The notes: generated from the sequence alone by a model not told the origin. Shown: positions 4,261 to 19,557, counted from the stretch's first letter. The stretch: DNA of 64,000 nt from Cloacibacterium rupense (GCF_014645495.1 NZ_BMLV01000001.1:291996-355995), one strand, 5' to 3'. Translations and numbers: made by a program.

Positions 4261-4502
4261 AAGTTAATAAAAGTAGAAATATAGTTATCATTTGTGTTTT
4301 TCTCTTTCGTTACCTTTCTATAGGTAACGGAAGGGATTTTTAATTAATAAGTATTCACATTCATACATTCATATTTTATTAAGTGAAGGTACAGCGTTTA
4401 TAGACGACATTGTACCTTTTTTTGTTTGTGGAATATTCAATAAAAATAAAATATTTTATTAATTCCATAAATTTCATATATTTGTAAAAATGCTAATTCA
4501 TT

Positions 4503-6932
4503 ATGCAAGCAACATATATTGAAACTCAAAATGTAACCTTCTTAGACTTTAAAAAACAAATTCTTGAAGATTATAAACTGGGTAGAATTTCTAGAGAAAT
4601 GTCTTATCTTGCTAGAAGAGAAGTTTTAACCGGGAAAGCAAAATTTGGTATTGTAGGTGATGGTAAAGAATTACCGCAGATTGCAATGGCTAAAGTTTTT
4701 AGAAATGGCGATTTTAGAAGTGGGTATTACAGAGACCAAACATTTGCAATGGCTGTAGGTGCATTAACCGTAGAAAGTTTTTTCGCACAATTATATGCGG
4801 ATACTTCTGTAGAAAGAGAACCTGCTTCCGCAGGAAGACAAATGAACGGACATTTTGCGACCAGAAGTTTAAATGAAGACGGCACTTGGAAAGACCTTAC
4901 TAAAATTAAAAATATTTCTTCTGATATTTCTCCTACTGCTGGTCAAATGCCTAGATTACTAGGGCTGGCACAGGCTTCTAAAGTTTATAAATCAGTGAAA
5001 TTTTCAGGTTCTGAAAAATTCAGTATTAATGGTAATGAAGTGGCTTTTGGTACCATTGGTGATGCATCTACTGCTGAAGGACATTTTTGGGAAACCCTCA
5101 ATGCTGCTTGTGCGCTTCAAGTTCCTATGATTTTATCTATTTGGGATGATGGATATGGAATTTCTGTTCCTACTCATAACCAAAGAGCAAAAGAAGATAT
5201 GGCAGAAATGTTATCTGGCTTCCAAAGAAAACAAGGAAAAACAGAAGGTTGCGAAATAATAAAAGTTAAAGCTTGGGATTATCCCGCGCTTTTAGATGCT
5301 TATGCTAGAGCAGAACATTTTGCTAGAGTAGAATCTGTACCCGTGGTAATTCATGTAGAAGAAGTTACCCAGCCACAAGGTCACTCTACCTCGGGGTCCC
5401 ATGAAAGATATAAATCTGAAGAAAGATTGCAATGGGAAACAGAACATGATGGTCTTTTGAAATTTAAACAATGGATTGCCGAATATTCTATCGAAATTGA
5501 AGGTGAACGCCATACCATTGCTACTTGGGAAGAATTAGATGAAATGGACAAAGAAGCAAAAAAATTTGTTAAAGAAGGTCAAAAAAAATCTTGGGAAGAC
5601 TACAGAGCGAGTATAGATGAGATGAGAAAACTTACTTTGCCATTAGTAGAAGTACTTTCTGTAGATATTCCTGAATTAAAAAAAGAAATTTATAAATTTA
5701 AAACGGTAATTTCTCTAGGCAAAAAAGATGTATTTCATTTAGTAAGAAAAACATTATTATGGACCAGAAATATCAATTCTGAAGAGAGAAACCAACTGAA
5801 AGATATCTATAAAAATTTATTTGAAATTGAAGAGGAAAATTATTCTTCTCATTTATATTCAGAATCGAATTGGAAAGTCACTAAAATAAAAGAAGTAAAA
5901 CCTATTTACTCAGACCATTCAGAAGTAGTAGATGGTAGAGTGGTGATTAGAAATAATTTTGATAAAATTTTTGAAAAATATCCAGAAGCTCTAGTTTTTG
6001 GGGAAGACGCAGGAAATATCGGAGATGTAAATCAAGGGTTAGAAGGGCTTCAAGAAAAATATGGTAGTGTAAGAATTTCAGATACAGGGATTAGAGAAGC
6101 TACTATTTTAGGTCAAGGAATTGGCTTGGCAATGCGTGGCCTTCGTCCTATTGCAGAAATTCAGTACTTAGATTATATATTGTATTGTTTACAAGGCCTT
6201 AGTGATGATTTAGCAACTGTACATTACAGAACCAAAGGCGGTCAAAAAGCACCTGTTATTGTAAGAACTAGAGGACATAGATTAGAAGGAATTTGGCATT
6301 CTGGTTCTCCTATGGCCGGAATTATTAATCTCGTTAAAGGGGTTAATGTGTTGGTTCCTAGAGATTTAACCAGAGCGGCTGGTTTTTATAATACTTTGTT
6401 TCAAAGTGACGAACCAGCAATTGTAGTAGAAACGCTAAATGGTTATAGACTAAAAGAAAAGCAACCAGATAATTTAGGAGAATTTACAGTTCCTATTGGT
6501 AAAATAGAAGTTACCAAAGAAGGTTCAGATGTTACCCTAGTAACTTATGGTTCTACATGGAGAATAGTTACAGAAGCTGCAGAAGAATTAGAAAAATTAG
6601 GAATTTCCGCAGAAGTTATTGATGTACAATCTTTAATTCCTTTTGATTTAGAACACGAAATTTTAGAAAGTGTTAAGAAAACCAACAGACTTGTTGTAAT
6701 AGATGAAGATGTGGAAGGAGGAACCTCTGCATTCATACTTCAACAAATTTTAGAAAAACAAGGTGCATTCAAGTATTTAGATTCTTCACCATTAAGTATT
6801 GCAGCTAAAAACCATAGACCAGCCTATGCAAGTGACGGAGATTACTTCTCTAAACCTTCAGTAGATGATGTGGTAGAAAAAGTGTACTTACTTTTCCACG
6901 AAGTAAATCCTAATAAATTCCCGAAATTTTAA
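4503..6932 (+). CDS. Branched-chain 2-oxoacid dehydrogenase E1 component, fused alpha/beta subunits (TPP-dependent)
   Basis: 809-aa ORF. The N-terminal half has E1-alpha (TPP-binding) features and the C-terminal half is transketolase-like E1-beta (…GEDAGNIGDVNQG…, C-terminal transketolase-C-like region). The fused 800-aa form is typical of Flavobacteriia. Confidence 0.8.
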   Translation: MQATYIETQNVTFLDFKKQILEDYKLGRISREMSYLARREVLTGKAKFGIVGDGKELPQIAMAKVFRNGDFRSGYYRDQTFAMAVGALTVESFFAQLYADTSVEREPASAGRQMNGHFATRSLNEDGTWKDLTKIKNISSDISPTAGQMPRLLGLAQASKVYKSVKFSGSEKFSINGNEVAFGTIGDASTAEGHFWETLNAACALQVPMILSIWDDGYGISVPTHNQRAKEDMAEMLSGFQRKQGKTEGCEIIKVKAWDYPALLDAYARAEHFARVESVPVVIHVEEVTQPQGHSTSGSHERYKSEERLQWETEHDGLLKFKQWIAEYSIEIEGERHTIATWEELDEMDKEAKKFVKEGQKKSWEDYRASIDEMRKLTLPLVEVLSVDIPELKKEIYKFKTVISLGKKDVFHLVRKTLLWTRNINSEERNQLKDIYKNLFEIEEENYSSHLYSESNWKVTKIKEVKPIYSDHSEVVDGRVVIRNNFDKIFEKYPEALVFGEDAGNIGDVNQGLEGLQEKYGSVRISDTGIREATILGQGIGLAMRGLRPIAEIQYLDYILYCLQGLSDDLATVHYRTKGGQKAPVIVRTRGHRLEGIWHSGSPMAGIINLVKGVNVLVPRDLTRAAGFYNTLFQSDEPAIVVETLNGYRLKEKQPDNLGEFTVPIGKIEVTKEGSDVTLVTYGSTWRIVTEAAEELEKLGISAEVIDVQSLIPFDLEHEILESVKKTNRLVVIDEDVEGGTSAFILQQILEKQGAFKYLDSSPLSIAAKNHRPAYASDGDYFSKPSVDDVVEKVYLLFHEVNPNKFPKF

Positions 6933-6958
6933 TTGAATTTCAATTTTATAAAAATTTA

Positions 6959-6994
6959 GAACCTTGCTAATCATCTATTGGCAAGGTTTTTTTG
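6959..6994 (+). terminator. Rho-independent terminator after the BCKDH E1 gene
   Basis: The hairpin aaccttgctaatcatctattggcaaggtt is followed by a T7 run. Confidence 0.6.
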
Positions 6995-7068
6995 TATTTT
7001 TATTAAAAATTTTAAAATATTTTCCAACCATATTTTTTATTCCTGCATCTAACCTATAAAAGCAACGC

Positions 7069-7593
7069 ATGAATCACGAACTTCTCATAAAACTTAAAAA
7101 CAAAGACCGATTGGCGCAAAGGCAAGTTTATGAGCAGTTTGCAGGAAGATTCTACGCAGTTTGCAAAAGATATTTAAAGAAAGACGAAGAAGCAGAAGAA
7201 GCATTAGCAGATACATTTTTTATCATTTTCACCAAAATAGACCAGTTACAAAACTTAGATGTTTTCGAGGCATGGGCAAAGAAAATAGCCGTTAATCAAT
7301 GTCTTCAAACGTTAAGAAAAAAAGAATCAATTTTAATATCAATAGACGAAGAAACCTTTGTAGAAAAGCATTTAGCAGACCAACATTCTGAATCTTCTTT
7401 TGAAAAAGATATTTTGGCATTACTTCATTTTTTACCAGAAGGTTGCCGCACGATATTTAATTTATTTGCTGTAGAAGGTTATCCTCACAGAGAAATTGCA
7501 GAGATGCTATCTATTACCGAAGGTACTTCTAAATCTCAAGTAAATTTTGCCAGAAAAAAACTACAAGAACTATTACAAACTCAAAATGTGTAA
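7069..7593 (+). CDS. ECF-type RNA polymerase sigma-70 factor (sigma-24 family)
   Basis: 174 aa. Region-2-like segment RQVYEQFAGRFYAVCKRYL...ADTFFIIFTKIDQ and region-4 HTH EGCRTIFNLFAVEGYPHREIAEMLSITEGTSKSQVNFARKKLQE. Confidence 0.85.
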   Translation: MNHELLIKLKNKDRLAQRQVYEQFAGRFYAVCKRYLKKDEEAEEALADTFFIIFTKIDQLQNLDVFEAWAKKIAVNQCLQTLRKKESILISIDEETFVEKHLADQHSESSFEKDILALLHFLPEGCRTIFNLFAVEGYPHREIAEMLSITEGTSKSQVNFARKKLQELLQTQNV

Positions 7594-7608
7594 ACAGAAT
7601 TTCTCAAA

Positions 7609-8595
7609 ATGGAAAATTTTAATGAAAATATAGACCAACTTTTCAGCGATGAAAGTAAAAAAGCAGAAGAAAATGCTACTTTTCCTTCTTTCGAAAAGGT
7701 ATGGGAAAAGGTTGAAAATCGTTTAGACGAAGTTGAAAACACAACAAAAAAACGCTTCATTCCTATTTGGTTGCCTTATTCTATTGCCGCATCATTAGTT
7801 TTTACTTTCGGAATAATGTACTTTTTTAATCAAAAAGAAACAATTTCAAATCATTCAAAAATTGCTTCTAATGAAACTTATAAAGTGATTAACAATCAGG
7901 GTTTTAATAATAATTTAGATAGCGCTAATATTGCAAAACTAGACCAATCTATTAAGCAAAATATTGAAAAATCTCAATTAAATGAAACTTCAAATAATAA
8001 TCTAGTAAAAAAGAAAGTAAGTTCACCACAAGTTTTAGCAGCTACCAAGATTTCTAATCAAGATAGTGAATCTTCTAATATCAATACTGAAGTTGATAAG
8101 AGCATTGAAATTTCAAATAATAACGACAATCAATTTATTCTAGCAAAAGCAGCGCCTTCGCCAGTAGTTGAAAATACAGCTTCTTTAGAATCAGAAAGAA
8201 TTATCGAAACTAAAAAATATAAGTCTGCAGAAGTTGCTAAAATGTCTCTTAATAATCAAAAAACGTCTGAACTGCTTACTTCTACAGCAGAACAGTCAAG
8301 TTTTTCAGAGTACGCAGTAAATAATGATGATGATTTTAAAATCAGTAGAAAACACGCCTCAGAACCGCTCTATATTGTTGATGGTTACGTAGCGGACACT
8401 AATTTTCTTAAGAATTACAACAAGAAAAAAATTACCTCTCTCAACATTGTAGAAGGTGATAATGCCAAAAAACTCTACGGAAATCTAGCCAAAAAAGGAG
8501 TAGTGGTTATTACTACAAAAGGTCTAAATTCTCAGGAAGAGGAATACCTCAAAAAAAATTCTAAAAATTATAATTTGTCTGGAACTAGCAATTAA
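7609..8595 (+). CDS. Membrane-anchored protein in the anti-sigma position, with a C-terminal SusC/RagA plug-like segment
   Basis: 328 aa, starting 16 nt after the ECF sigma gene. It has a ~50-aa cytoplasmic N-terminus with no Zn-finger anti-sigma motif, then one TM helix (FIPIWLPYSIAASLVFTFGIMYFF). A long S/N/E-rich low-complexity linker follows. The C-terminus reads PLYIVDGYVADTNFLKNYNKKKITSLNIVEGDNAKKLYGNLAKKGVVVITTKG. This matches the conserved PLYVVDGV...ISVLKDA.A.AIYGSRAANGVI.ITTKKG stretch at the start of the plug of SusC/RagA-type TonB-dependent transporters. Confidence 0.55.
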   Translation: MENFNENIDQLFSDESKKAEENATFPSFEKVWEKVENRLDEVENTTKKRFIPIWLPYSIAASLVFTFGIMYFFNQKETISNHSKIASNETYKVINNQGFNNNLDSANIAKLDQSIKQNIEKSQLNETSNNNLVKKKVSSPQVLAATKISNQDSESSNINTEVDKSIEISNNNDNQFILAKAAPSPVVENTASLESERIIETKKYKSAEVAKMSLNNQKTSELLTSTAEQSSFSEYAVNNDDDFKISRKHASEPLYIVDGYVADTNFLKNYNKKKITSLNIVEGDNAKKLYGNLAKKGVVVITTKGLNSQEEEYLKKNSKNYNLSGTSN

Positions 8596-8631
8596 AATCA
8601 AGCTTTTATTTAATCTTTTAACACAGCAGAT

Positions 8632-11424
8632 ATGAAGAATTTCTATATCTTACTCTTTGTGCATCTTTTTTTGAACGGTTTTTCGCAGAACGAACAACGA
8701 TATTATGCGGGAAATTTCTACAACAAAAAAGACAAACCAGAAAATAATCTGAAGGTAACCAACAAAAATTCAGGGAATTATGAATTTTCAGATCAATACG
8801 GTTTTGTAATTATTCCTGCAAAAGTAGGCGATACTTTGGTTTGGAACAAAAAAAATTTCAGAGTAATACAAAACTATGAATTACAAGAAATTACCAGTAT
8901 TCTAGCTTCAAGAAAGCAAATGAACTCTACTACCGAACAAATAAATGTTTCTTATTTAGAAAAAATAAAAGTTGATTTTAAGAAAAATACAGACAATTCA
9001 GATTATCTGTTTTCCTCAAAAAAAGGAAAAAAACTAAATAATGGAAATTTGAGTAGTTTTTCTAACTATAAAACCGTTAAAGAGGAAGATAGCGTTTTTA
9101 TTTTTAAGAAAAAGAAGTCTTCAAATATCAAATTGAATGGCTCTTTTCAAAGTTGGGTAGAAATCGGTTCTGCTAATGCTTTACCAATAACTCAAAACCA
9201 ATTTGTACAAGGTAGAAATTCTAATGGTAATCTAATTTGGAGAGGTGCAGAAACTGATGAAATGTTCAGTTTCGGACCAGATATTTCTACCTTGAGTTTT
9301 GATGGAAATCCTTATGAATACGATATAAACGGAAAATTAGTTCTGTTGCAAAATGGACTGAAATCTGCCAAAGTTTATAAAAACAGAATCTTACAAAATT
9401 CTATTAAAACTTCTAATCAATTTACTTTGAATACAGCAATTACTGTTGCAGATTTACATTTATTTACCACAAAATTAGATTTGGGAAACACCAAAGAAAA
9501 TTCACTTTTTAGAGATAATTTTACCAATAATAATCATTTGAATGTGAATGTTTTTAGAAATTTTGATGACATCAAAGTAACTTTTGGTTATAAATTAAAT
9601 CAGGAAAAAGCGACTAACAGCAACAGAATAGGTTATTTTAATAGATTATTTCAAAATGCTTTACTTACGCCTATTTCATTTTCTAATGAACAGGGAAATT
9701 TATTAGGAAACAAACAACGCAGTTACAATAGTTTTGCAGATAATCCATATTATTTACTTCAACAAAATAATAAGTATAACTATATTGATAATCAGAATAA
9801 TATATCTTTAAATATAGAAAAAATTAAAGGAAATTTGAAATTTTTTATCAATCAAGCGTATGAAAAAATTTCTACTAAAAATATAGATTTTTACAATCCT
9901 TTTACTGTTGGTTTTTACAGCGGTTTAAATTCTGAAAGACTGCAAAATTTTGAAAATTATAACCTCAATTTCGGCGCTAATTACAGTTTTGGAAATTATA
10001 ATGCTCGTTCTTCTTTTTTCTTTAATAGCTTGATTAATAGTGCTAAAAACGAAATTAATTATCTTCAATTCAATCAAAATAATCAATACAACAGAATTGC
10101 ACAAGATTATATTTTGAAATACAATTTCGATTTTAGAGATAATCAATTTAAATTTAATATAGATGCCGCTAATTCTTTTTATATTTCAAATACTTCAAAA
10201 TCAGAATCTTATTGGTTGCCAAAATTGAATTTTTCAGTAAATTTAGATGATGTTTTTGATAATTATTCATATCATAATTTCAAAATTTTTGGAGCTTATA
10301 ATGAATCTGTAAACGAAATCAGCATTAATAAATCTTTTGCAAATTTTGCGACAACGCAGATTTTGCCTTCTCAAATTTCAAGTTATTTTCCATTAAAAGA
10401 AGTGGTGAGTTTTAAGAATTTAGAACCCATAAAAACCATAGAAAAGAAAGTAGGATTGCAATATAATTTACTGCGAAATAGAATTAATTTAGAAGCAGTT
10501 TATTTCCAAAAAACCTTTACTGATGATGTTTTTCCAACTTTTGAAAACGGAAATCTAATTTTGAAAAATATCGCCAATCATCAAAACAAAGGTTTTGAAT
10601 TAAACCTTCAACTCAATAATTTTTCTTTTGGAGATTCTTCTGAATTTAGAGACAATCACAAGATTACGTTCACCAAATACAGTTCAGAAGTTACCCAAGT
10701 TAATTCACAAAATCTATTCGTTCCGATTGCTGGTTTTAGCAACGTTTACAGAAGTTTGACAAAAGGTGAAGCTTTAGGTGTAATTGTTGGAACTGCTTAC
10801 AAAAGAGACAATTACGGAAATTTTGTGATAGGAAATGACGGTTTTCCGTTGGTTTCTCCAGATTTGAAAGTGATAGGAAATCCAATTCCAGATTTTGTCC
10901 TCAAATTTTCTCACGAATTTAAGTTGTATTATTTCAGTTTAAACATCGATTGGGAATGGAGAAAAGGTGGCGATGTTTGGAACGGAACCGCTGCAAACCT
11001 CGATTATTTCGGGCGTTCTCAAAATTCTGCCGAACAAAGAAACATCGCCAATTACACATTTTCTGGAGTTTTACAAAACGGAAATCCCAATTCTATTTTG
11101 GTAGATTTTTACAACGTAAATCAAAATTTTGAAAACAATCTTTGGTACAGATACGGTTACACTGGAGTTGCCGAAAATTACATTTCAAAAGCCACACAAA
11201 TTCGCTTAAATAACATTTTGCTTTCTTATACAATCAAGCGTAATATTTTGCCATTCAATGAGTTGAAACTTTCCGCTTCGGTTAATAATTTCATACTTTG
11301 GAGCAAATACAAAGGAGTAGATTCCACGCAAAATTTCTACAATTCTAGTGATGTGCAAGGTTTAGATTTCTACAATTTGCCTTCTGTGAAATCGTTTGCT
11401 TTCCAAATTGCTGTTAAATTTTAA
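8632..11424 (+). CDS. SusC/RagA-like outer-membrane beta-barrel protein with an N-terminal carboxypeptidase-regulatory-like domain but no TonB box or plug
   Basis: 930 aa. Signal peptide MKNFYILLFVHLFLNGFSQ, followed by a CarboxypepD_reg-like beta-sandwich (GNYEFSDQYGFVIIPAKVGDTLVW). Barrel-like features include NHQNKGFELNLQL and a C-terminal aromatic residue (…KSFAFQIAVKF). I could find neither a (D/E)xVVVxGYG TonB box nor the IRIRG/PLYVVDG/ITTKKG plug signature. Confidence 0.6.
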   Translation: MKNFYILLFVHLFLNGFSQNEQRYYAGNFYNKKDKPENNLKVTNKNSGNYEFSDQYGFVIIPAKVGDTLVWNKKNFRVIQNYELQEITSILASRKQMNSTTEQINVSYLEKIKVDFKKNTDNSDYLFSSKKGKKLNNGNLSSFSNYKTVKEEDSVFIFKKKKSSNIKLNGSFQSWVEIGSANALPITQNQFVQGRNSNGNLIWRGAETDEMFSFGPDISTLSFDGNPYEYDINGKLVLLQNGLKSAKVYKNRILQNSIKTSNQFTLNTAITVADLHLFTTKLDLGNTKENSLFRDNFTNNNHLNVNVFRNFDDIKVTFGYKLNQEKATNSNRIGYFNRLFQNALLTPISFSNEQGNLLGNKQRSYNSFADNPYYLLQQNNKYNYIDNQNNISLNIEKIKGNLKFFINQAYEKISTKNIDFYNPFTVGFYSGLNSERLQNFENYNLNFGANYSFGNYNARSSFFFNSLINSAKNEINYLQFNQNNQYNRIAQDYILKYNFDFRDNQFKFNIDAANSFYISNTSKSESYWLPKLNFSVNLDDVFDNYSYHNFKIFGAYNESVNEISINKSFANFATTQILPSQISSYFPLKEVVSFKNLEPIKTIEKKVGLQYNLLRNRINLEAVYFQKTFTDDVFPTFENGNLILKNIANHQNKGFELNLQLNNFSFGDSSEFRDNHKITFTKYSSEVTQVNSQNLFVPIAGFSNVYRSLTKGEALGVIVGTAYKRDNYGNFVIGNDGFPLVSPDLKVIGNPIPDFVLKFSHEFKLYYFSLNIDWEWRKGGDVWNGTAANLDYFGRSQNSAEQRNIANYTFSGVLQNGNPNSILVDFYNVNQNFENNLWYRYGYTGVAENYISKATQIRLNNILLSYTIKRNILPFNELKLSASVNNFILWSKYKGVDSTQNFYNSSDVQGLDFYNLPSVKSFAFQIAVKF

Positions 11425-11437
11425 AAACTATCTGAAA

Positions 11438-14400
11438 ATGAAAACTTTACAATATATTTTTCTTTTCCTTTTTGCATTCCAATGTTCATTTGCACAAAAA
11501 TCTTACAAAAATTATTATTCTGAATACGAAAGTATTCCTAATTATCTGAAATCTAATGAAGAAGCAGAACTTTTTTATCAATTATTTGCCAAAAAAGTAA
11601 AATCTGATTACAAAAAAGAAAAGGTTTATGCACAAACCAACCACGTTTTTTTCAAACCGGGAGAAGAACTTTTTTACAAAATTTTGGTGGTAAATGCAGA
11701 AAATAATTCGCCAAGTTTTTTGAGTAAAATAGTAACCGTAGAAATGATAGATCCTTCTGGAACGGTAGTAAATAAAAGAAAATTGCAAGTTCTGAATGGT
11801 TATGCGAAAGGAAATTTCTATTTTCCTGCAGATGTAAAAGGAGGAATTTATAAACTGCGAGTTTATACCAATTATATGCAAAACGAAATCGGGAAAAATT
11901 ATTTCGAAAAAGAACTGACGGTACAAAAAACATCTTCGCCAAGAATTTTAATGAAATTAGACTTCCCAAAAAAAGGATTAAGTGCTGGACAAGAAGTTTT
12001 GGCAGATTTTTCCCTTAAAAATTTGAATAATGAGGTAATTCCTTTTTATCAGTTTTCTTATGAAGTTTACATCGCAGGAAAAGAAGTTTTAAAAAACGAA
12101 GTTTCTACCAATAAAGAAGGTAAAATTCAATTGAAATTTAATTTGCCAAAAGATTTAGAAACCACTGATGTTTTACTCAATATTCGTGTAAATTACGATG
12201 GTTTCAAAGAGTCTATTTCTAGAAATGTACCTGTAACTTTGAATAAAGTAGATTTGTTTTTCTTCCCAGAAAGTGGGAGTTTAGCGAATGATATTTCAAC
12301 CAAAATCGCCTTCAAAGCTTTAAATGAATTTGGACAACCGGTAGATATAAAAGGAGAAATTTTAGACGAAAATCAACAAAAAATTTCAGAATTTGAAGCT
12401 TATAAATTCGGAATGGGAAAATTTAATTTTACTCCTAAAAATGGTAAAAAATATTTCGTAAAAATTCTTCAACCCAATATTTCAAAATTATACGAATTGC
12501 CTTCTGCAAAGGATAATACCGTGGTTTTGAATACTGAAAAATTCAATGGGAAAATTATTTTAAAAATTCAATCTAATGAAATTCAAAATTTAAAATTAAT
12601 CGGAAATTTTAGAAATAAAGAAGTTTTTAGCAAAGAATTTTCTTTACGCCAAAAAGAAGAAATCCAACTTGATGAAAAAAAATTTTCTTCCGGAATTTGC
12701 AGATTTACAGTATATAATACTGAAAATATACCACTTTGTGAACGAGTGATTTACCTTAATAAATCTCGTGAAATGCAAGTGAAAATCACACCGAATAAAA
12801 ATACTTTTATCCCAAGAGAAAAAGTAGAACTCAATATAGAAACGCTTGACGAAAACGGAAAACCAATTGCTGCAAATCTCGGTTTGAGTGTGATAGATGA
12901 CAAACTTTGGACGTATGCTGATGATAAACAAAACACCATATTTTCTTGGCTTCAAATGGATTCTGAAATTGCAGGAAAAATAGAAGAACCTTCATTTTAT
13001 TTCAAAAAAGACGAACCAAAAGCAGACGAAGCTTTGGATTTGGTAATGCTTACCAATGCGTACCGATATTTTGAATTATTGCCGGAAATTAAGGAAAATA
13101 AATTAATGAAATTTGAGTATGAAAAATCGAATTCTGTCTATGGAAAAGTAATTGATGAAAACGGTAAAGATATAGATGCAGAAGTGTTTTTGATGGATTA
13201 TAGTGCCGAACCAAAAGTTTTGAAACAAAGCACAAAAAAAGCGAGATTTTATTTCACCAATTTTCCTTCGGGTAGAGATTATCAATTGATTTCAAAACCT
13301 AAAAATAAGAAGCAAAAAATTTCAATTAAAGTTTTGGCATTTCATCTCGATGGAGAAATTATGGTTACTGAAAGCGAGCTAAAATCTTCACAAAAAGAAG
13401 GAAAAGAATTTGAAAAAATTGAAGAAAATTTTAAAGAAAGAGCTTTAGAAAAAATTCAAAATAAAACAGAAAATCAAGTTCAAGTTGAAAGCAAAAGATA
13501 TTACAGCGGTAAATCTGATTCAACTAAAATTAAAAACATTGAACAAGTAGTAGTGGTAGGTTATGGAATGGCGAAAAAAGAAGCATTAACAAGTTCTGTA
13601 GTTTCGGTTTCAAGAAATGAAATCAATGCCAATATTGTTCAATCGCTTTCTGGAAGAGTGGCAGGTTTAGAAATTACCCAAAATTCAGGAATTCCCGGAA
13701 GTGCTGCCAATATTAGAATTAGAGGAGCTGCTTCTCTCAACGGAAATCAACCGCTTTTTGTGATTGATGGCGTGATTGTAGATAAAATTGATACCAATAT
13801 CAATACCAATGATATTAAAAACATCAGCGTTCTAAAAGATGCGGCTGCAACTTCAATTTATGGAAGCAGAGCTGCAAATGGTGTAATCATTATCAATACC
13901 AACGATGGAATGCCTTACAATGCTAAACACATTAATTTTTCTAAAGATCATTTTGCGTATTTTAATATTTCTTCGGGTTATCTTAAAAATAGTGATAGTT
14001 ACGAGAGAGTTTTCACGTATCCAGTTTACCAAGATACCAAAACGCTTTTTAGAGATGATTTCAGAGAAACTATTTATTGGAATCCTGTCATTCAAACCGA
14101 TGAAAACGGAAAAGCAAAAGTAGAATTTTATAATTCTGATGCCAATACAACTTTCCGAATGATTACAGAAGGTGCTTCTTACAACGGTTTATTAGGAAGA
14201 GCAGAAAAAACGTATGCTGTGAAAAGTAATTTGCAAATAGATGCTAAAATTCCGCAATATATTACGATGGCAGATCAACCAGAAATTCCTTTGGTGATAA
14301 AAAATAACACGGATAAAATTAAAAGAATTAACCTTAATTATTTCTTGCCAAAAAATATAGGATTGTTGAAAAAAGACAGTTTGGTAATTCTTAACCCTAT

Positions 14401-16057
14401 GGAAAACAGAAGATTGCTTTTGCCTTTATTGGCTAATAGAAGTACTAATTCTAGTCTTCAAATTTCTGCAATTACAGATGATGAAAGAGAAACACAAGTG
14501 CTTCCGCTAAAAGTAGAACCGAAAGGTTTCCGTCATTTTATAGATTTTTCGGTAAATAAAGATACGGTTTATCAGTTCAATGTTTTGGATAGAACCATTG
14601 ATGATAATACGTTTTACCGATTGAGAATTTTTAGAAATACCGCTAATAGAATTTTGAATGATTTAGACAGATTGTTAGACGAACCTCACGGTTGTTTTGA
14701 GCAGACTTCTTCTACCACTTATCCTAATTATTTTGTTTTGCAATATTTAAAATCTAAAGGAAAGGTAGATGAAAAATTAGAACAAAAAGCGCTCAAAAAT
14801 TTGAAACACGGTTACAACAGATTGGTGAATTTTGAAACATCGGAAAATGGTTTTAGTCTTTTTGGTAGTAAACCAGCCAATGTAAGTCTCACTGCATTTG
14901 GTTTGATGGAATTTAATGATTTGAAAAATGTATTGAATGTAGATGAAAAAATGCTGGAAAGAACCAAAAAATTTGTTCTATCAAAGAGAAATCCAAATGG
15001 AACCTTCAACCTTTCTAATTATGAATCTTATTATGATAAAAAATCTGAATATTATTGGGCAAAACAAGCGTATATTTTGTATGCACTTTCTTCAATTGGT
15101 TTGAAGGATGAAATTTCTAAACAATATGAAGTAATTCTTAACCATAATAAAGCAACTGGCGATGCTTATCAAATGGCACTTTTGGCAAATGTAGCTTTTG
15201 ATTTAGGCAAAAAACAAGATTACAAAGTTTTGTCAGAAAAACTGTACCGAAAATTTTCTGATAATAAATTAAAATCGGAAGTCAATTTTATGGAAGGAAG
15301 TGGCAAATCTCTTTCTGCGGAAGTTTTGGCTTTGTATGCTATTTCTCTTTTGAAAAGCGACGAAGAGCAATTGAATTTAACCAAAGTAATCGATGCTTTA
15401 GAACTTTCTGATGGTTATTATTCTACTCAATCTAAAGTTTTGGTTTTGAAAGCTTTGTCAGAATATTATTCAAAATTTAATGTAAATTCTTCTAATGCTG
15501 AACCTACAGTAAAACTGAATGGAGAATTATTAAAAGAAGAACAATTGATAACCAATGATTTATTGAAAAAAGGACAAAACCAACTCGAAATTTCCTATCC
15601 AAAAGGAAAAGGTTTGCCTTTGAATTTTTATGCCAGTTATTTCTCGCTTCAACCACCAAAAGATGAAAATTCTACAATTTTTATGGAGGTTAATTTGTCT
15701 CAAAAAGAAGCAAAAATAGGTGATAATGTAAGAATGAATATTAAAATTGAGAACAAAGAAAACCGATATCTTGGAATGATTACTGCAAAAATTGGGATTC
15801 CTGCTGGTTTAACCATTCAACCAAAATTATTGAAGGATATGATTGAGAAAAAGCAAATTGCGTATTATGAAATTTTTGATAATTATTTGGTTTTGTATTG
15901 GTATAAATTAGAAGAAAAAGCAAGTATCAATCTCAATTTAGATTTAAAAGCAGAATTTTCTGGAAGATATATTGGGAAAGCCAACAAAGTTTATGAATAC
16001 TATAAACCCGAAAATTATCATTGGAAAGATGGAGTAGAGGTAAAAATTAATGACTAA
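11438..16057 (+). CDS. Alpha-2-macroglobulin-family protein (MG domains plus thioester domain) with an internal TonB box and SusC/RagA plug-signature insert
   Basis: Start moved to MKTLQYIFLFLFAFQCSFAQ (signal peptide). MG2-like N-terminus (KPGEELFYKILVV...GGIYKLRVYT) and an A2M-type LSVIDDKLW motif. The thioester region reads LLDEPHGCFEQTSSTTYPNYFVLQYL…FETSENGFSLFGSKPANVSLTAFGLMEF, alignable by eye to human A2M LLQMPYGCGEQNM…YKHYDGSYSTFG…WLTAFVLKTF. At nt 13541..13910 sits the insert EQVVVVGYGMAKKEALTSSVVSVSRNEINANIVQSLSGRVAGLEITQNSGIPGSAANIRIRGAASLNGNQPLFVIDGVIVDKIDTNINTNDIKNISVLKDAAATSIYGSRAANGVIIINTNDG. It comprises a TonB box plus the SusC/RagA signature. Confidence 0.7.
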   Translation: MKTLQYIFLFLFAFQCSFAQKSYKNYYSEYESIPNYLKSNEEAELFYQLFAKKVKSDYKKEKVYAQTNHVFFKPGEELFYKILVVNAENNSPSFLSKIVTVEMIDPSGTVVNKRKLQVLNGYAKGNFYFPADVKGGIYKLRVYTNYMQNEIGKNYFEKELTVQKTSSPRILMKLDFPKKGLSAGQEVLADFSLKNLNNEVIPFYQFSYEVYIAGKEVLKNEVSTNKEGKIQLKFNLPKDLETTDVLLNIRVNYDGFKESISRNVPVTLNKVDLFFFPESGSLANDISTKIAFKALNEFGQPVDIKGEILDENQQKISEFEAYKFGMGKFNFTPKNGKKYFVKILQPNISKLYELPSAKDNTVVLNTEKFNGKIILKIQSNEIQNLKLIGNFRNKEVFSKEFSLRQKEEIQLDEKKFSSGICRFTVYNTENIPLCERVIYLNKSREMQVKITPNKNTFIPREKVELNIETLDENGKPIAANLGLSVIDDKLWTYADDKQNTIFSWLQMDSEIAGKIEEPSFYFKKDEPKADEALDLVMLTNAYRYFELLPEIKENKLMKFEYEKSNSVYGKVIDENGKDIDAEVFLMDYSAEPKVLKQSTKKARFYFTNFPSGRDYQLISKPKNKKQKISIKVLAFHLDGEIMVTESELKSSQKEGKEFEKIEENFKERALEKIQNKTENQVQVESKRYYSGKSDSTKIKNIEQVVVVGYGMAKKEALTSSVVSVSRNEINANIVQSLSGRVAGLEITQNSGIPGSAANIRIRGAASLNGNQPLFVIDGVIVDKIDTNINTNDIKNISVLKDAAATSIYGSRAANGVIIINTNDGMPYNAKHINFSKDHFAYFNISSGYLKNSDSYERVFTYPVYQDTKTLFRDDFRETIYWNPVIQTDENGKAKVEFYNSDANTTFRMITEGASYNGLLGRAEKTYAVKSNLQIDAKIPQYITMADQPEIPLVIKNNTDKIKRINLNYFLPKNIGLLKKDSLVILNPMENRRLLLPLLANRSTNSSLQISAITDDERETQVLPLKVEPKGFRHFIDFSVNKDTVYQFNVLDRTIDDNTFYRLRIFRNTANRILNDLDRLLDEPHGCFEQTSSTTYPNYFVLQYLKSKGKVDEKLEQKALKNLKHGYNRLVNFETSENGFSLFGSKPANVSLTAFGLMEFNDLKNVLNVDEKMLERTKKFVLSKRNPNGTFNLSNYESYYDKKSEYYWAKQAYILYALSSIGLKDEISKQYEVILNHNKATGDAYQMALLANVAFDLGKKQDYKVLSEKLYRKFSDNKLKSEVNFMEGSGKSLSAEVLALYAISLLKSDEEQLNLTKVIDALELSDGYYSTQSKVLVLKALSEYYSKFNVNSSNAEPTVKLNGELLKEEQLITNDLLKKGQNQLEISYPKGKGLPLNFYASYFSLQPPKDENSTIFMEVNLSQKEAKIGDNVRMNIKIENKENRYLGMITAKIGIPAGLTIQPKLLKDMIEKKQIAYYEIFDNYLVLYWYKLEEKASINLNLDLKAEFSGRYIGKANKVYEYYKPENYHWKDGVEVKIND

Positions 16058-16062
16058 AAAAG

Positions 16063-16092
16063 TAGACTGACAGAAATGTCAGTTTATTTTTT
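16063..16092 (+). terminator. Terminator after the A2M-family gene
   Basis: The hairpin actgacagaaatgtcagt is followed by ttatttttttaatttatttt. Confidence 0.5.
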
Positions 16093-16165
16093 TAATTTAT
16101 TTTCAAAAATTATTGAAAGTTCAGGAATTTTATTTATCTTTGTCAAAGAAAATCAATCATTAATT

Positions 16166-16669
16166 ATGAAACTAGAAGAAGCCAAAGAAAAATACATTCA
16201 AACTTGGGGCACATTTGCCACCAATTGGGGAATTAATAGAACAATGGCACAAGTTCACGCTTTGCTTTTAGCTTCGGATAAACCACTTTCTACAGACGAA
16301 GTGATGGACGCATTACAAATTTCTAGGGGAAATGCTAATATGAATTTGCGTGATTTAATGAACTGGGGAATTGTAAGAAAAGAATTGGTAAAAGGAGAGA
16401 GGAAGGAATATTTCGTTGCAGATAAAGATGTTTGGTATCTTTTTAAACAAATTACCAAAGAACGCAGGAAAAGAGAAATAGAACCAGTTGTTTCGTTTTT
16501 AGAAGAACTTAAAAATATAGAAGACAATGATTCTAATGAAGCCAAGGAATTCATCAAATTAATGGAAGATTTCTCATCAGTTACTCAAAAAATCAACAAT
16601 ATTATGGATTTGGCGATAAAAAGTGATGATCATTGGTTAGTTGGGAAGATAACAAATTTGTTAAAATAA
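16166..16669 (+). CDS. GbsR/MarR-type winged-helix transcriptional regulator
   Basis: The start was moved to MKLEEAKEKYIQTWGTFATNWGINRTMAQVHALLLASDKPLSTDEVMDALQISRGNANMNLRDLMNWGIVRKELVKGERKEYF. The pattern matches small HTH regulators annotated as GbsR family in Flavobacteriia. Confidence 0.65.
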   Translation: MKLEEAKEKYIQTWGTFATNWGINRTMAQVHALLLASDKPLSTDEVMDALQISRGNANMNLRDLMNWGIVRKELVKGERKEYFVADKDVWYLFKQITKERRKREIEPVVSFLEELKNIEDNDSNEAKEFIKLMEDFSSVTQKINNIMDLAIKSDDHWLVGKITNLLK

Positions 16670-16671
16670 AA

Positions 16672-16740
16672 ACTTTGTCAAAGATTCCTTTGCTTCGCAA
16701 AAACTTTGACAAAGTATAAAAAGGAAGAATCCTTTTTTTA
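16672..16740. promoter_or_regulatory. Perfect 12-bp inverted repeat followed by a short hairpin/T-run, between the GbsR-type regulator gene and the DCC-family gene
   Basis: actttgtcaaag at 16672..16683 pairs with ctttgacaaagt at 16704..16715, separated by a 20-nt spacer. aaaaaggaagaatccttttttt then follows at 16718..16740. Confidence 0.4.
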
Positions 16741-16864
16741 TTTAAAATTAATTTTCAAAAATTACTGAAAATATTATAATTATGAAAAATATAATCATCT
16801 ATTTGTTTCTAATGCTTTACTTCGGGAGAAGTAAGAGAAGTGCGTTTAATCTTTAAAATTTATA

Positions 16865-17683
16865 ATGATGAAAACTCTTAAAAATCACACCCTTATTTAC
16901 GATAAAGATTGCCCAATGTGCGCTGTTTATTCATCGGCTTTTATCGGTTCAGGAATGTTAGACAAAAACGGAAGAGAAGCATTTTGCGAAATTTCTTTGG
17001 AAGACAAAAATCTTTTAGATTATAATAAAGCGAGAAATGAGATTGCTCTCATCAATCATCAAGAAAACAAGGTGATTTATGGTTTAGACAGTTTATTGCT
17101 CATTATCGGAAATTCTTTTCCATTGTTGGTGAAAATTGCAAAAATACAGCCATTGTATTGGTTTTTTCAGAAGCTTTATAAGTTGGTCTCATTTAATAGA
17201 AAACAGATTATTCCTTCTGTAAAAGATACTGAAAAAGATGCTTGTGTTCCTGATTTTAATCTAAAATACAGACTTCTTTACATTGGCTTTGTTGCTGTTC
17301 TTTCAGCCTTTGTTTTAAGTGAATTTTCTCCGAAATTATGGCAAAATCTTACCCCTAATTTTTATAGAGAATTAAGTGTTTGTTTGGCTCAGATTTTTTG
17401 GCAAACACTATTTTTGAAATCTTTTTTAAAAGATAATTTTTGGAATTATTTGGGAAATATGATGACGGTTTCTCTTCTGGGAACTTTATTGCTTATTCCT
17501 GCTTTGTTTCTCAATTTCAATGCGTTATTTTTTGGAGTTTACTTTTTTGCAGTAGTTTCAGTAATGTTTTTTGAGCATTTCAGGAGATGCAAAATCTTAA
17601 AATTAGGATTTCTGCCTACTTTCTCTTGGTTGATTTTCAGACTGACTTTAGCTTTACTAATTTTCGCAATATATTCAAAATAA
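16865..17683 (+). CDS. DCC-family thiol-disulfide oxidoreductase (DUF393-like) fused to a C-terminal polytopic membrane region
   Basis: N-terminus LIYDKDCPMCAVYSSAFIGSGMLD…IYGLDSLLLIIGNSFPLLVKIAKIQPLYWFFQKLYKLVSFNR (DCC motif CPxC). The C-terminal half is strongly hydrophobic. Confidence 0.6.
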   Translation: MMKTLKNHTLIYDKDCPMCAVYSSAFIGSGMLDKNGREAFCEISLEDKNLLDYNKARNEIALINHQENKVIYGLDSLLLIIGNSFPLLVKIAKIQPLYWFFQKLYKLVSFNRKQIIPSVKDTEKDACVPDFNLKYRLLYIGFVAVLSAFVLSEFSPKLWQNLTPNFYRELSVCLAQIFWQTLFLKSFLKDNFWNYLGNMMTVSLLGTLLLIPALFLNFNALFFGVYFFAVVSVMFFEHFRRCKILKLGFLPTFSWLIFRLTLALLIFAIYSK

Positions 17684-17690
17684 ACTAATT

Positions 17691-18392
17691 ATGAATTTCC
17701 TCACCGCAGAATGGCGAAAATTAGCCATTATCAATTACGAAGTAAATCCAGAAATTTTAGAAAAATACCTTCCAAACGGAGTAGAACTAGATTTTTGGGA
17801 CGGAAAATGTTTAATAAGTGTTGTGGGCTTTATGTTTTTAAATACTCAACTTTTGGGCATTTCTGTTCCTTTTCATCGTAATTTCGAAGAACTAAATCTT
17901 CGATTTTATGTCAAAAAATGGGAAAACCAACAATGGAAAAGAGGCGTAGTTTTTATCAAAGAAATTGTTCCTAAAAAAGCACTTTCATTCATTGCCAATA
18001 CTTTTTACAAAGAACATTACGAAACATTGCCAATGAAACATCTAATTTCGGAAAATACAGAAGAAATAACTGTAGAATATTTTTGGGGTGAAAATTTGAA
18101 TAATATCATTCAATTAGTTGCAAAAAATAATCAGCAAAAAATGCTTCAAAATTCTGATTTTGAATTTATTACAGAACATTATTTCGGGTACACCAAAAAT
18201 GGAGAAAAAACTTTTGAATATGAAGTAACGCATCCAAAATGGAAAAATTATGAAGTTTTAAATTCTTTTATTCAAATTGATTTTAAAGAAAATTATGGTG
18301 CTGACTTTGAATTTTTGCAAAACCAAAAACCACATTCTATTTTATTGGCAGAAGGTTCTGAAATTGAGGTGAAAACAAAGAAAATCATATAA
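17691..18392 (+). CDS. DUF2071 (YqjF-like) family protein
   Basis: 233 aa. The N-terminus MNFLTAEWRKLAIINYEVNPEILEKYLPNGVELDFWDGKCLISVVGFMF fits the DUF2071 pattern. It sits adjacent to a DCC gene, a commonly seen pairing. Confidence 0.55.
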   Translation: MNFLTAEWRKLAIINYEVNPEILEKYLPNGVELDFWDGKCLISVVGFMFLNTQLLGISVPFHRNFEELNLRFYVKKWENQQWKRGVVFIKEIVPKKALSFIANTFYKEHYETLPMKHLISENTEEITVEYFWGENLNNIIQLVAKNNQQKMLQNSDFEFITEHYFGYTKNGEKTFEYEVTHPKWKNYEVLNSFIQIDFKENYGADFEFLQNQKPHSILLAEGSEIEVKTKKII

Positions 18393-18394
18393 AT

Positions 18395-18691
18395 ATGACA
18401 GGTTTATATTTTGATTTAGAATATGTAATGTTCTTGCTTACAGTCTCTTCAATTTTTTTGCCAATTCTTTTTTTGATAATATTAAATCTTAAATTTAAAA
18501 AAATGAAGCTTAGCTTGATTATGATTTTTGTTTATAATCTTCTATTTATTTCGGCTTTCTTTTTTTTACAGAAATTAATTAATCAAAGTCATTCAAAGTA
18601 TTTAATTCAAATATTAAAATTTGAAAGTCTAATTGCTTTATTTTTAGCTTTTTATATAATTTTTAAATTGATAAAAAAAATTAAATTATGA
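18395..18691 (+). CDS. Small hydrophobic membrane protein, hypothetical
   Basis: 98-aa ORF with three predicted hydrophobic helices. It is tightly packed between DUF2071 and the epimerase-family gene, with a 4-nt overlap with the latter. No similarity recognised. Confidence 0.35.
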   Translation: MTGLYFDLEYVMFLLTVSSIFLPILFLIILNLKFKKMKLSLIMIFVYNLLFISAFFFLQKLINQSHSKYLIQILKFESLIALFLAFYIIFKLIKKIKL

Positions 18692-19557
18692 AAATCATCA
18701 TTGCAGGAGGTAGCGGTTTTTTAGGTAAAGAACTCGAAACCTATTTTAGAAATAAAAACCACGAGGTAATTATCTTTACCAGAAATCCAAAACAGCAAAA
18801 CGAAATTTTTTGGGATGCTAAAACCATAGGAAATTGGACAGAAATTTTAGAAAATTCAGACGTCCTCATCAATCTTACAGGCAAATCAGTTGATTGCAGA
18901 TACACCGAGAAAAACAAACTGGAAATTTACAATTCTAGAATTTTTTCTACCCGAATTTTACAACAGGCAATTGACACATTGCAAAATCCACCAAAAGTTT
19001 GGCTTAATGCCAGTTCTGCAACCATTTATATTCATTCTGAAACGCATCTTAATACCGAAGAAAACGGGATAATTGGTGATGATTTTTCGATGAATATTTG
19101 TAAGTCTTGGGAACAAGAATTTTTTAAAATAGAAAACGAAAACATCAGAAAAATCGCATTGAGAACTTCTATTGTTTTAGGGAATTCTGGTGGCGCTTTT
19201 CCTAAAATGAAACTCATTACCAAATTGGGTTTAGGAGGTAAACAAGGCAGAGGAAAGCAAATGATGAGTTGGATTTATATAGATGATTTTTGCAGAGCAG
19301 TAGAGTTTTTAATAGAAAATGAAAAAATTTGTGGAGCAGTAAATGTTACCGCTCCCAATCCTCTCACAAACGAAGAATTCATGAAAACTCTACGAAAAAA
19401 ATTAAAAATTCCTTTCGGAATAGCAAGTCCAGTCTGGCTGTTAGAATTAATGTCTATTTTTCTAAAAACAGAAACAGAACTTCTTTTGAAAAGTAGAAAT
19501 GTTTATCCAGAAAAATTAATAAAGAATAAGTTTTATTTTAAATATTCTAATTTTTAA
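18688..19557 (+). CDS. TIGR01777/SDR39U1-type NAD-dependent epimerase-family oxidoreductase
   Basis: The N-terminal Rossmann motif (MKIIIAGGSGFLGKELETYF) and the overall length and pattern match the YfcH-like epimerase family with a DUF1731 C-terminus. Confidence 0.75.
   Translation: MKIIIAGGSGFLGKELETYFRNKNHEVIIFTRNPKQQNEIFWDAKTIGNWTEILENSDVLINLTGKSVDCRYTEKNKLEIYNSRIFSTRILQQAIDTLQNPPKVWLNASSATIYIHSETHLNTEENGIIGDDFSMNICKSWEQEFFKIENENIRKIALRTSIVLGNSGGAFPKMKLITKLGLGGKQGRGKQMMSWIYIDDFCRAVEFLIENEKICGAVNVTAPNPLTNEEFMKTLRKKLKIPFGIASPVWLLELMSIFLKTETELLLKSRNVYPEKLIKNKFYFKYSNF

Follow-up and report, generated by a model that had tools for sequence, protein, structure and literature searches.

A predicted plugless SusC-type barrel is encoded beside a plug-bearing alpha-2-macroglobulin-family protein in Cloacibacterium rupense and other Bacteroidota

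The plug and barrel of a TonB-dependent transporter (TBDT) are regarded as parts of one polypeptide that fold together. A four-gene locus in a 64-kb stretch of DNA (31.6% G + C) from Cloacibacterium rupense, a member of the Weeksellaceae, raises the question of whether these parts may also be divided between proteins. Throughout, "the window" denotes this entire stretch, and coordinates are counted from its first nucleotide. The genes of the locus, g1 to g4, are four intact, co-directional open reading frames on the + strand, which encode, in order, an extracytoplasmic function (ECF) sigma factor, a membrane protein in the anti-sigma position, a SusC-type barrel and an alpha-2-macroglobulin (A2M) family protein. 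An initial annotation of the window proposed that the modules of a SusC/RagA-type TBDT are spread over three of these proteins. That the modules are distributed over separate proteins stands, but the three-way split does not; the division is two-way, with the barrel in g3 and the N-terminal extension, TonB box and plug in g4. From these sequences we lean, on balance, toward the view that g3 and g4 form a single TBDT split into two polypeptides, in which the g4 plug docks in the g3 barrel.

The barrel protein g3 and the plug-bearing protein g4

Gene 3 (8632..11424) encodes a 930-residue protein that TIGR04056, BLASTP, AlphaFold2 (AF2) and Foldseek together identify as a plugless, 22-strand outer-membrane barrel of the SusC type. 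Its match to TIGR04056 covers model positions 278-981 only and, at 87.2 bits (9e-25), falls below the cutoff of 368.25 bits, and no match was obtained to any Pfam family, Plug included, or to TIGR04057. BLASTP aligned g3 residues 150-930 colinearly with residues 233-1048 of the canonical SusC protein P0225 (E 3e-21), skipping P0225 residues 117-232. In P0225, Pfam places a CarbopepD_reg_2 domain at residues 26-106 and a Plug domain at residues 117-238, and the alignment opens exactly at the last plug strand (SVFIFKKKKSS in g3 versus GVIIITTKNGS in P0225). The remnant of this strand in g3 is encoded at 9067-9117 and is followed by the barrel.

The AF2 model of g3, computed with 40 homologues, has a predicted local distance difference test score (pLDDT) of 85 and a predicted template modeling score (pTM) of 0.75, and contains no plug-sized domain. 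Rather, the signal peptide is followed by an N-terminal β-sandwich (residues 21-95; 8692-8916), a disordered linker (residues 98-144), two short strands and then 22 long strands. A sequence search of the PDB with g3 gave no match and only the fold search was informative, with SusC BT2264 (E 1.9e-37, TM-score 0.64-0.66), BT1763 and RagA as the best Foldseek hits. Like these SusC/RagA TBDTs, g3 has a 22-strand barrel and a C-terminal aromatic residue, the Phe of its terminal AVKF sequence. We also considered whether g4 might supply the first barrel strand of g3, an idea abandoned because all 22 strands are already present in the g3 model.

The partial TIGR04056 match, the AF2 model and the Foldseek hits bear out the initial description of g3 as a SusC-like barrel that has an aromatic C-terminus and neither a TonB box nor a plug. 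The CarboxypepD_reg domain also ascribed to g3 is present as the β-sandwich of the model and has no Pfam match; in this copy the assignment is structural only, and Pfam finds the domain in distant homologues. Sequence and model together thus identify g3 as a barrel of the SusC type that has lost its TonB box and plug.

Gene 4 (11438..16057) encodes a putatively secreted, 1539-residue thioester protein of the A2M family, with Pfam matches to MG2 (1.4e-9), Plug (PF07715, 7.2e-13), A2M (2e-9), TED_complement (9.5e-25) and A2M_recep (5.7e-5). Its match to TIGR04056 (5.8e-48, 163.9 bits) is also below the 368.25-bit cutoff and covers positions 76-219 of the model, complementary to the 278-981 covered by g3, and its match to TIGR04057 (58 bits) lies above the cutoff of 46.2. 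These results confirm the earlier assignment of g4 as an A2M with an internal TonB box and a SusC/RagA plug signature.

The order of domains in the homologues of g4 is MG2, A2M_BRD (ending at ~462), CarboxypepD_reg (540-600), Plug (681-782), A2M/MG7 (844-931), the thioester domain (TED) and the receptor-binding domain. The TBDT-like insert thus follows A2M_BRD and reaches almost to FRETIYW, with which the A2M (MG7) domain starts and which is the g4 equivalent of the FPETWLW-type start of the α′ chain. The insert begins with a CarboxypepD_reg-like β-sandwich (residues 562-640; 13121..13357), equivalent to the N-terminal extension of SusC, and PF13620 matches at this position in the homologues P0038 and P0061. 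Next is a charged, hypervariable linker (residues 641-700; 13358..13537), its variability given by column entropy and its disorder by low pLDDT. The remainder of the insert consists of the TonB box IEQVVVVGYG (13538-13567) and a complete plug, which together span residues 701-845 (13538..13972) and are matched by PF07715, TIGR04056 and TIGR04057. Compared with the solved structure of SusC BT1763, the insert aligns with residues 105-266 (E 4.4e-27), a stretch that covers the TonB box (DEVVVTGY) and the plug up to its end.

The thioester site PHGCFEQTSS (14684..14713) is part of the TED_complement match, and its GCFEQ core (14690-14704) is invariant in all 83 homologues, with thioester formation itself predicted from sequence. 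In the plug, the motifs IRG, PL..DG and LKD...YG are invariant among the g4 homologues, and the TonB box is conserved. Residues 661-700, just before the TonB box, are by column entropy (2.3-2.8 bits among the 83 homologues) more variable than any other part of g4. This hypervariable segment of 40-60 residues resembles what a retained bait segment would look like and, from sequence and model, is a candidate for one. The N-termini of the g4 homologues contain signal peptides of the signal peptidase I type and no conserved lipobox Cys, and Pfam detected no type IX secretion system (T9SS) sorting domain in g4.

In comparison to SusC/RagA TBDTs, the insert of g4 likewise carries the N-terminal extension domain, TonB box, plug and SusC/RagA signature. 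The differences are that barrel and plug are on two chains, with the plug inside a 1539-residue A2M, that there is neither a SusD/RagB lid gene nor a polysaccharide utilization locus (PUL), and that g3 and g4 each fall short of the TIGR04056 cutoff. By these measures neither protein counts as a SusC/RagA family member. The A2M portion can similarly be set against the two bacterial A2M types. Type I proteins (ECAM/SaA2M) are thioester-containing lipoproteins paired with PBP1c (pbpC), and Type II proteins (MagD) lack the CxEQ thioester and are encoded in the six-gene magABCDEF operon (PMC5764988). Like these A2Ms, g4 has a macroglobulin (MG) domain body, a receptor-binding/MG8-type C-terminus, a variable segment at the bait position and a presumably periplasmic location. 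It shares with Type I a TED with CxEQ and differs in having neither a lipobox nor a pbpC neighbor, whereas it is distinguished from Type II by the presence of CxEQ and the absence of adjacent mag genes. Unlike in either type, the bait position of g4 is occupied by the N-terminal half of a TBDT, and in place of an inner-membrane anchor the partner would be a barrel in the outer membrane. In sequence comparison, the g4 TED region is nearest to CD109, TEP1, human A2M and C3, and it did not match the solved bacterial A2Ms at E ≤ 1e-3. As judged from these features, g4 truly belongs to the A2M/thioester superfamily, yet to neither Type I nor Type II.

The placement of the insert recalls the complement proteins C3, C4 and C5, in which an anaphylatoxin (ANA) domain is found at the bait-equivalent site and cleavage there activates the thioester protein (PMC9352918). 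The folded module of g4 occupies the same insertion hot-spot before the FPETWLW-type start, making the C3 ANA domain its nearest analogy. The g4 module is, however, the N-terminal half of a TBDT and not an anaphylatoxin, and g4 is a bacterial, putatively outer-membrane-associated protein.

The g3-g4 pairing was assessed in 83 loci, 80 of them from a genome scan (Chryseobacterium, Epilithonimonas, Frigoriflavimonas, Chitinophaga, Ferruginibacter and Flavisolibacter) and three fetched earlier. Wherever the sequence covered the position, a g3 homologue was found directly upstream of g4; in locus L077 its last 163 residues are present, with the contig ending there. Starting instead from distant relatives of g3 (29-36% identity), the A2M-plug gene was again adjacent in Aquimarina (Flavobacteriaceae), in Chitinophaga and in a Cytophagia metagenome-assembled genome (MAG), the last with the order of the barrel and A2M-plug genes reversed. 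The pairing in these 86 loci spans the Weeksellaceae, Flavobacteriaceae, Chitinophagales and Cytophagia. Because the two genes are adjacent in all of these loci, including the reversed one, g3 and g4 constitute a conserved core that is independent of gene order. The architecture of g4 recurs in hundreds of proteins, to which NCBI gives the name "TonB-dependent receptor plug domain-containing protein". An exhaustive search with g4 returned ~900 clusters (50% identity, E ≤ 1e-30), and among the best 150 of these ~60 matched unbroken right across the insert, as judged by eye. In the literature that we searched, a layout of barrel and A2M-plug is not described, which agrees with the statement of the initial annotation that no such system was known, and databases carry automatic names only.

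The sigma factor, the gene 2 protein and the extent of the locus

The 174-residue product of g1 (7069..7593) matches Sigma70_r2 (8.5e-11) and Sigma70_r4_2 (1.9e-13) in Pfam and scores 77.6 bits against the sigma70-ECF model TIGR02937, above its cutoff of 42.9 bits. It is a small protein composed of regions sigma-2 and sigma-4 only and is, as first annotated, an ECF sigma factor. An ECF-type promoter-like motif, CCAACC-N15-GCATCT (7024..7050), ends 18 nt 5′ of the g1 ATG. In its general form, CCAACC-N15/16-GCATCT, the motif occurs once in the window (chance expectation 0.00), and it was present upstream of the g1 homologue in every fetched locus that has one, with invariant boxes and a variable spacer. 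It was also found upstream of a detached g3 in loci L005, L006 and L060, where the sigma pair is elsewhere. In L002 and L003, the detached g3 has only a partial motif, CCAACG... with no GCATCT, at about 5100-5230.

Homologues of g1 and g2 accompany the g3-g4 pair only in the Weeksellaceae, where they are adjacent or 7-9 kb downstream, and they were not found near the pair in the examined loci of the Chitinophagales, Aquimarina and the Cytophagia MAG. The proposed "ECF-sigma operon" is thus a fitting description for the genus Cloacibacterium and not for the family, as the sigma/g2 pair is adjacent, displaced or absent according to lineage. The coupling to an ECF sigma factor is nonetheless upheld by the common promoter motif and by fusions of a g2-type module to an A2M-plug protein (below). 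On these two bases, both drawn from sequence comparison, the ECF coupling of the system appears looser than the g3-g4 pairing but real.

Gene 2 (7609..8595) encodes a 328-residue membrane protein in the anti-sigma position and is 100% identical to a C. rupense hypothetical protein. It consists of a short cytoplasmic N-terminus with the motif FPSFEKVWEKVENRLD (7681-7728), a single transmembrane (TM) helix (7756-7830) preceded by KKR, a low-complexity linker of ~180 residues and a partial plug-like C-terminus. The last of these is a segment of the SusC/RagA signature region, PLYIVDG...VVVITTKG (8356..8523), and its weak match to TIGR04057 (residues 275-304, E 0.012, 15.5 bits against a cutoff of 46.2) was the sole match for g2. 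With no Pfam domain found, the absence of an anti-sigma or FecR domain, the one TM helix and the low-complexity linker are as the initial annotation had them. Its equation of the g2 C-terminus with the first plug strands did not hold, as the region represented by TIGR04057 is the C-terminal core of the plug.

The short form of g2 (327-329 residues) is conserved within Cloacibacterium. Homologues of 770-839 residues share the N-terminus and TM helix and add a full TonB box and plug (EIDEVVVTAYG...), a von Willebrand factor A (VWA) domain and a T9SS C-terminal sorting domain. The Plug family is matched by g2 homologues of C. glaciei (4.4e-10) and L002 (4.1e-9). The plug-like end of g2 is best described, on sequence, as an extra copy of the plug, here a partial one, and not as the missing piece of a split transporter. 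The long forms occur in many Chryseobacterium and Epilithonimonas (L035, 4763-7075; L028, 2734-5079; L002, 18056-20575), and it is odd that a T9SS signal is present on proteins that look anchored in the inner membrane. Gaps of 1.4-3.5 kb between the sigma pair and g3 were considered as unrelated inserted genes, which was rejected; they correspond to the longer g2 forms, with a VWA (YfbK-like) lipoprotein gene in addition in some loci. VWA proteins recur beside the module in varying positions (L028, 5170-7077; L001, 12871-14841; L091, 234-2867), some of them being YfbK-like lipoproteins with TSP3-type repeats.

Three features point indirectly to an anti-sigma role for g2: it begins 15 nt after g1, it is predicted to be a single-pass protein with its N-terminus inside, and its cytoplasmic motif is common to the long g2 forms and to anti-sigma/A2M fusion proteins that follow other ECF sigma genes. 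We infer that g2 may act as the anti-sigma factor. In this arrangement the locus resembles FecI/FecR/FecA, in that genes for an ECF sigma factor, a single-pass membrane protein and TonB-dependent outer-membrane components succeed one another, and in its apparently autoregulated ECF-type promoter. It differs in that FecR, DUF4974 and STN domains are missing, that the periplasmic end of g2 is itself plug-like, and that the sigma link is absent in the Chitinophagales, Aquimarina and Cytophagia. Indeed, neither Pfam nor NCBIfam identified a FecR, DUF4974 or STN domain in g2, g3, g4 or the long g2 homologues. The protein in the anti-sigma position is thus not FecR-like, consistent with what had been noted. 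Because there is no FecR domain and no STN domain, the system is not one of FecIRA-type signaling, and because the system has no STN signaling domain, the term "transducer" used in the initial annotation is a misnomer.

The four genes are closely spaced. The g2-g3 gap is 36 nt, as initially given, and the g1-g2 gap is 15 nt rather than 16. The overlap reported between g3 and g4 is the product of a mechanically assigned TTG start at 11396, which overlaps g3 by 29 nt and adds 11396-11437 to the reading frame. We place the g4 start at ATG 11438, which leaves a 13-nt gap, because the homologues are 1538-1540 residues long and because of the signal peptide, MKTLQYIFLFLFAFQCSFAQ. A database homologue, P0002 (1599 residues), was apparently called from an even earlier start than the TTG. 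The terminators that had been noted on either side of the four co-directional genes are present and can be placed as terminator-like hairpins on the + strand at 6958..6990, with a 14-pair stem followed by a T run, and at 16055..16094, with an 18-pair stem followed by a T run. The former belongs to the upstream E1-dehydrogenase gene and marks the 5′ boundary of the unit, and the latter is directly 3′ of the g4 stop codon. A weak, 6-pair terminator-like hairpin within the g3 coding sequence (10345-10360) is probably a chance match, because shuffling predicts a comparable number of such sites for the region.

On one side the locus is flanked by a gene for an E1-type 2-oxoacid dehydrogenase (4503-6932) and on the other by a run of TrmB-like, DCC1-like, DUF2071 and epimerase genes (16076-19557). 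The same flanking genes are found in C. glaciei and in L002-type genomes, indicating that the chromosomal position is conserved in the Weeksellaceae. The genes next to the locus are the E1 dehydrogenase and the TrmB-like regulator, and the Pfam-annotated neighborhoods of the homologues contain no SusD family member. No carbohydrate-active enzyme (CAZyme) or PUL genes were found near the window locus or in the examined neighborhoods, there was no pbpC at the window locus or homologous loci, and no mag genes were found as neighbors. A PADLOC defense-system scan of g1-g4 gave no match.

Fusion proteins, a sister family and a duplicated cluster

Relatives of the system combine its parts differently. 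In loci L089 (6427-12226) and L090 (6329-12856), an ECF sigma gene whose product is 31-32% identical to g1 is directly followed by a gene for a fusion protein of 1741 or 1951 residues, respectively. In each fusion protein a g2-like cytoplasmic motif (F..W.K.E..LD), a TM helix and a linker precede a complete A2M, which has GCFEQ and contains CarboxypepD_reg and Plug as inserts; this architecture is suggestive of a fusion between the N-terminal module of g2 and g4. Upstream of the sigma genes of L089 and L090 the CCAACC box is kept and the downstream box is different.

A sister family of A2Ms, represented by P0417 (L087, 5864-10756) and P0420 (L088, 8001-13001), harbors at the bait position two CarboxypepD_reg domains and a TonB C-terminal domain (TonB_C; PF03544, 6e-17 in P0417 and 4e-18 in P0420), which replaces the TonB box and plug. 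No barrel gene was found near either one. Members of the A2M scaffold thus carry either TonB or its TonB-box partner at the bait site, which argues that this site connects the thioester protein to the TonB-dependent outer-membrane machinery. Finally, L091 has g3-like barrels on both sides of a divergent A2M. The duplicated cluster (4331-17405) encodes a barrel of 812 residues, an A2M of 1568 residues in which Pfam did not detect a plug, a second barrel of 804 residues and a 907-residue protein corresponding to the N-terminal half of the A2M.

Docking of the g4 plug and its alternatives

How might the two proteins work together? A TBDT plug has both of its ends on the periplasmic side, and the topology therefore allows it to enter from there. 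In the reading that we prefer, the g4 plug would enter the g3 barrel from the periplasm, and docking would close the channel and tether the A2M body at the inner face of the outer membrane, leaving the TonB box of g4 available to TonB. An incoming protease could then cut the exposed hypervariable linker, which would activate the thioester as in other A2Ms, and the reactive C-terminal fragment, plug-MG7-TED, would stay anchored in the barrel after cleavage. The bait region of A2Ms can be replaced in its entirety, and the chain must be broken for activation to occur (PMC9352918). In Cloacibacterium, g3 and g4 would be transcribed together with g1 and g2 from the CCAACC-N15/16-GCATCT promoter, and g2, through its long linker and partly plug-like C-terminal end, could inform the sigma factor about the state of the barrel/A2M complex. 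Such reporting is suggested by the ECF control, the plug-like end of g2 and the anti-sigma/A2M fusions. In this reading, physical docking and protease sensing by g4 are inferred, as is the coupling of protease trapping to TonB or sigma signaling that the initial annotation put forward.

The nearest analogy for a plug supplied in trans is LptD-LptE, which functions in lipopolysaccharide insertion and in which the lumen of an outer-membrane barrel is filled by a separately encoded small lipoprotein, LptE. The folds and function are unrelated, and LptE has no counterpart of a TonB-box-bearing TBDT plug within a giant protein.

A more elaborate version would make the system a complement-like envelope sentinel and the first natural two-polypeptide TBDT, in which a thioester A2M sits in the barrel by way of its bait region, and a protease cut in the bait or force from TonB on the embedded TonB box at once fires the trap, shifts the gating of the channel and signals through the plug-bearing anti-sigma factor to the ECF sigma factor, which induces more of the system. 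We consider this full sequence of events doubtful.

Several observations weigh against the split-transporter reading. The AF2 model of g4 residues 401-1100 is poor (pLDDT 52, pTM 0.30) and was used for domain-level order and disorder only, the CarboxypepD_reg-like domain being the only confidently modeled part of the insert (pLDDT 70-80). The periplasm is suggested as the location of g4 only by its signal peptide and by its lack of a lipobox and of a T9SS C-terminal domain. Neither Pfam nor NCBIfam recognized an anti-sigma domain in g2 or its homologues, and L002 and L003 do not have the full promoter motif upstream of g3. The g2-type N-terminal motif was aligned over only four short sequences, and its presence in the fusions is therefore suggestive, not proven. 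In addition, the Plug-insert A2Ms of L089 and L090 have no adjacent barrel; a barrel could be encoded elsewhere, but the plug insert evidently does not strictly require a neighboring one. These two loci break the rule that a Plug-insert A2M always adjoins a plugless barrel, which we keep as a strong tendency. Lastly, naturally plugless SusC-type barrels have been proposed to be open channels (bioRxiv 10.1101/2025.11.13.688124), and g3 might thus work without a plug.

This last point underlies the foremost alternative, to which we attach a real if minor probability: g3 would be an autonomous open diffusion channel, plugless and lidless, and the g4 insert would be a TonB-binding handle or bait, with the two genes being neighbors only by virtue of a common pathway. 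The model for such a channel is the proposed "Type S" SusC-like transporters of gut Bacteroides, which have no SusD lid and often no plug, g3 having neither, and a plug-deleted SusC still transports small sugars (bioRxiv 10.1101/2025.11.13.688124). The L089 and L090 proteins without an adjacent barrel also fit this explanation, as do the g2-type proteins, which bear plug domains with no dedicated barrel, and the sister A2Ms with TonB_C at the same site, which may be a general hook for the TonB machinery. However, Type S proteins are proposed to be small-glycan channels in carbohydrate loci, whereas g3 is always paired with a plug-bearing protein and has no CAZyme or PUL context. An open channel also fails to explain why the only plug-deleted barrel family encountered lies beside a plug-bearing A2M in all 86 loci from four lineages and in both gene orders, and why the canonical SusC core motifs are so strongly conserved in the g4 plug.

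It is quite unlikely, in our estimate, that g3 is instead a pore for export or anchoring through which the A2M is exposed at the cell surface, the plug segment remaining in the barrel as a stalk, so that g4 would trap proteases outside the cell or bind surfaces. TBDT-like proteins can be needed for protein secretion, as with Oar and PopC of Myxococcus (PMC6434023). Thioester proteins of the TEP, C3 and CD109 type, the best matches of the g4 TED, act on surfaces, and the T9SS sorting domain of the long g2 forms hints at surface biology. Yet g4 itself has neither a T9SS C-terminal domain nor a lipoprotein export signal, ~700 residues of folded MG domains on either side of the plug would need to cross the outer membrane, and the conserved TonB box implies that the insert can be reached from the periplasm.

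We give similarly poor prospects to a protein or peptide importer resembling RagAB, in which the A2M body replaces SusD/RagB, on the periplasmic side, and captures imported polypeptides covalently or sterically after TonB has opened the plug. The SusC/RagA-like fold and plug, the conserved TonB box and the absence of a SusD or RagB partner nearby are in keeping with import. By contrast, irreversible capture by a thioester fits nutrient uptake poorly, the conserved neighborhood contains no peptidase or transport genes, and ECF control and the fusion of A2M to anti-sigma-type modules favor stress sensing or defense over feeding. A decayed or mis-assembled SusC locus without function, whether pseudogene or chimeric artifact, might be suspected from the g3 score far below the TIGR04056 cutoff (87 versus 368 bits) and its lack of a Pfam match, but was rejected as effectively refuted by the intact reading frames, the recurrence of the architecture with conserved lengths and motifs in hundreds of genomes and MAGs from several orders, and the confident, complete barrel of the g3 model.

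Returning to the split transporter, a plug supplied in trans would provide a handle on plug insertion, plug extraction and the transduction of force by TonB. Bacterial A2Ms are at present divided into two types, both associated with the inner membrane; the g4 family would add a third type that docks at the outer membrane and combines a thioester with a folded module at the insertion site used by complement. Moreover, the ECF link, the anti-sigma/A2M fusions and the relatives with TonB_C inserts suggest an unexplored network of envelope defense or sensing. Were the sentinel version true, the TonB_C-insert sisters and the anti-sigma/A2M fusions would be variants of one Bacteroidota strategy for wiring thioester proteins to TonB. 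The hosts of the system are common Bacteroidota of soil, water and wastewater (Chryseobacterium, Cloacibacterium and Chitinophaga), some of them opportunistic pathogens.

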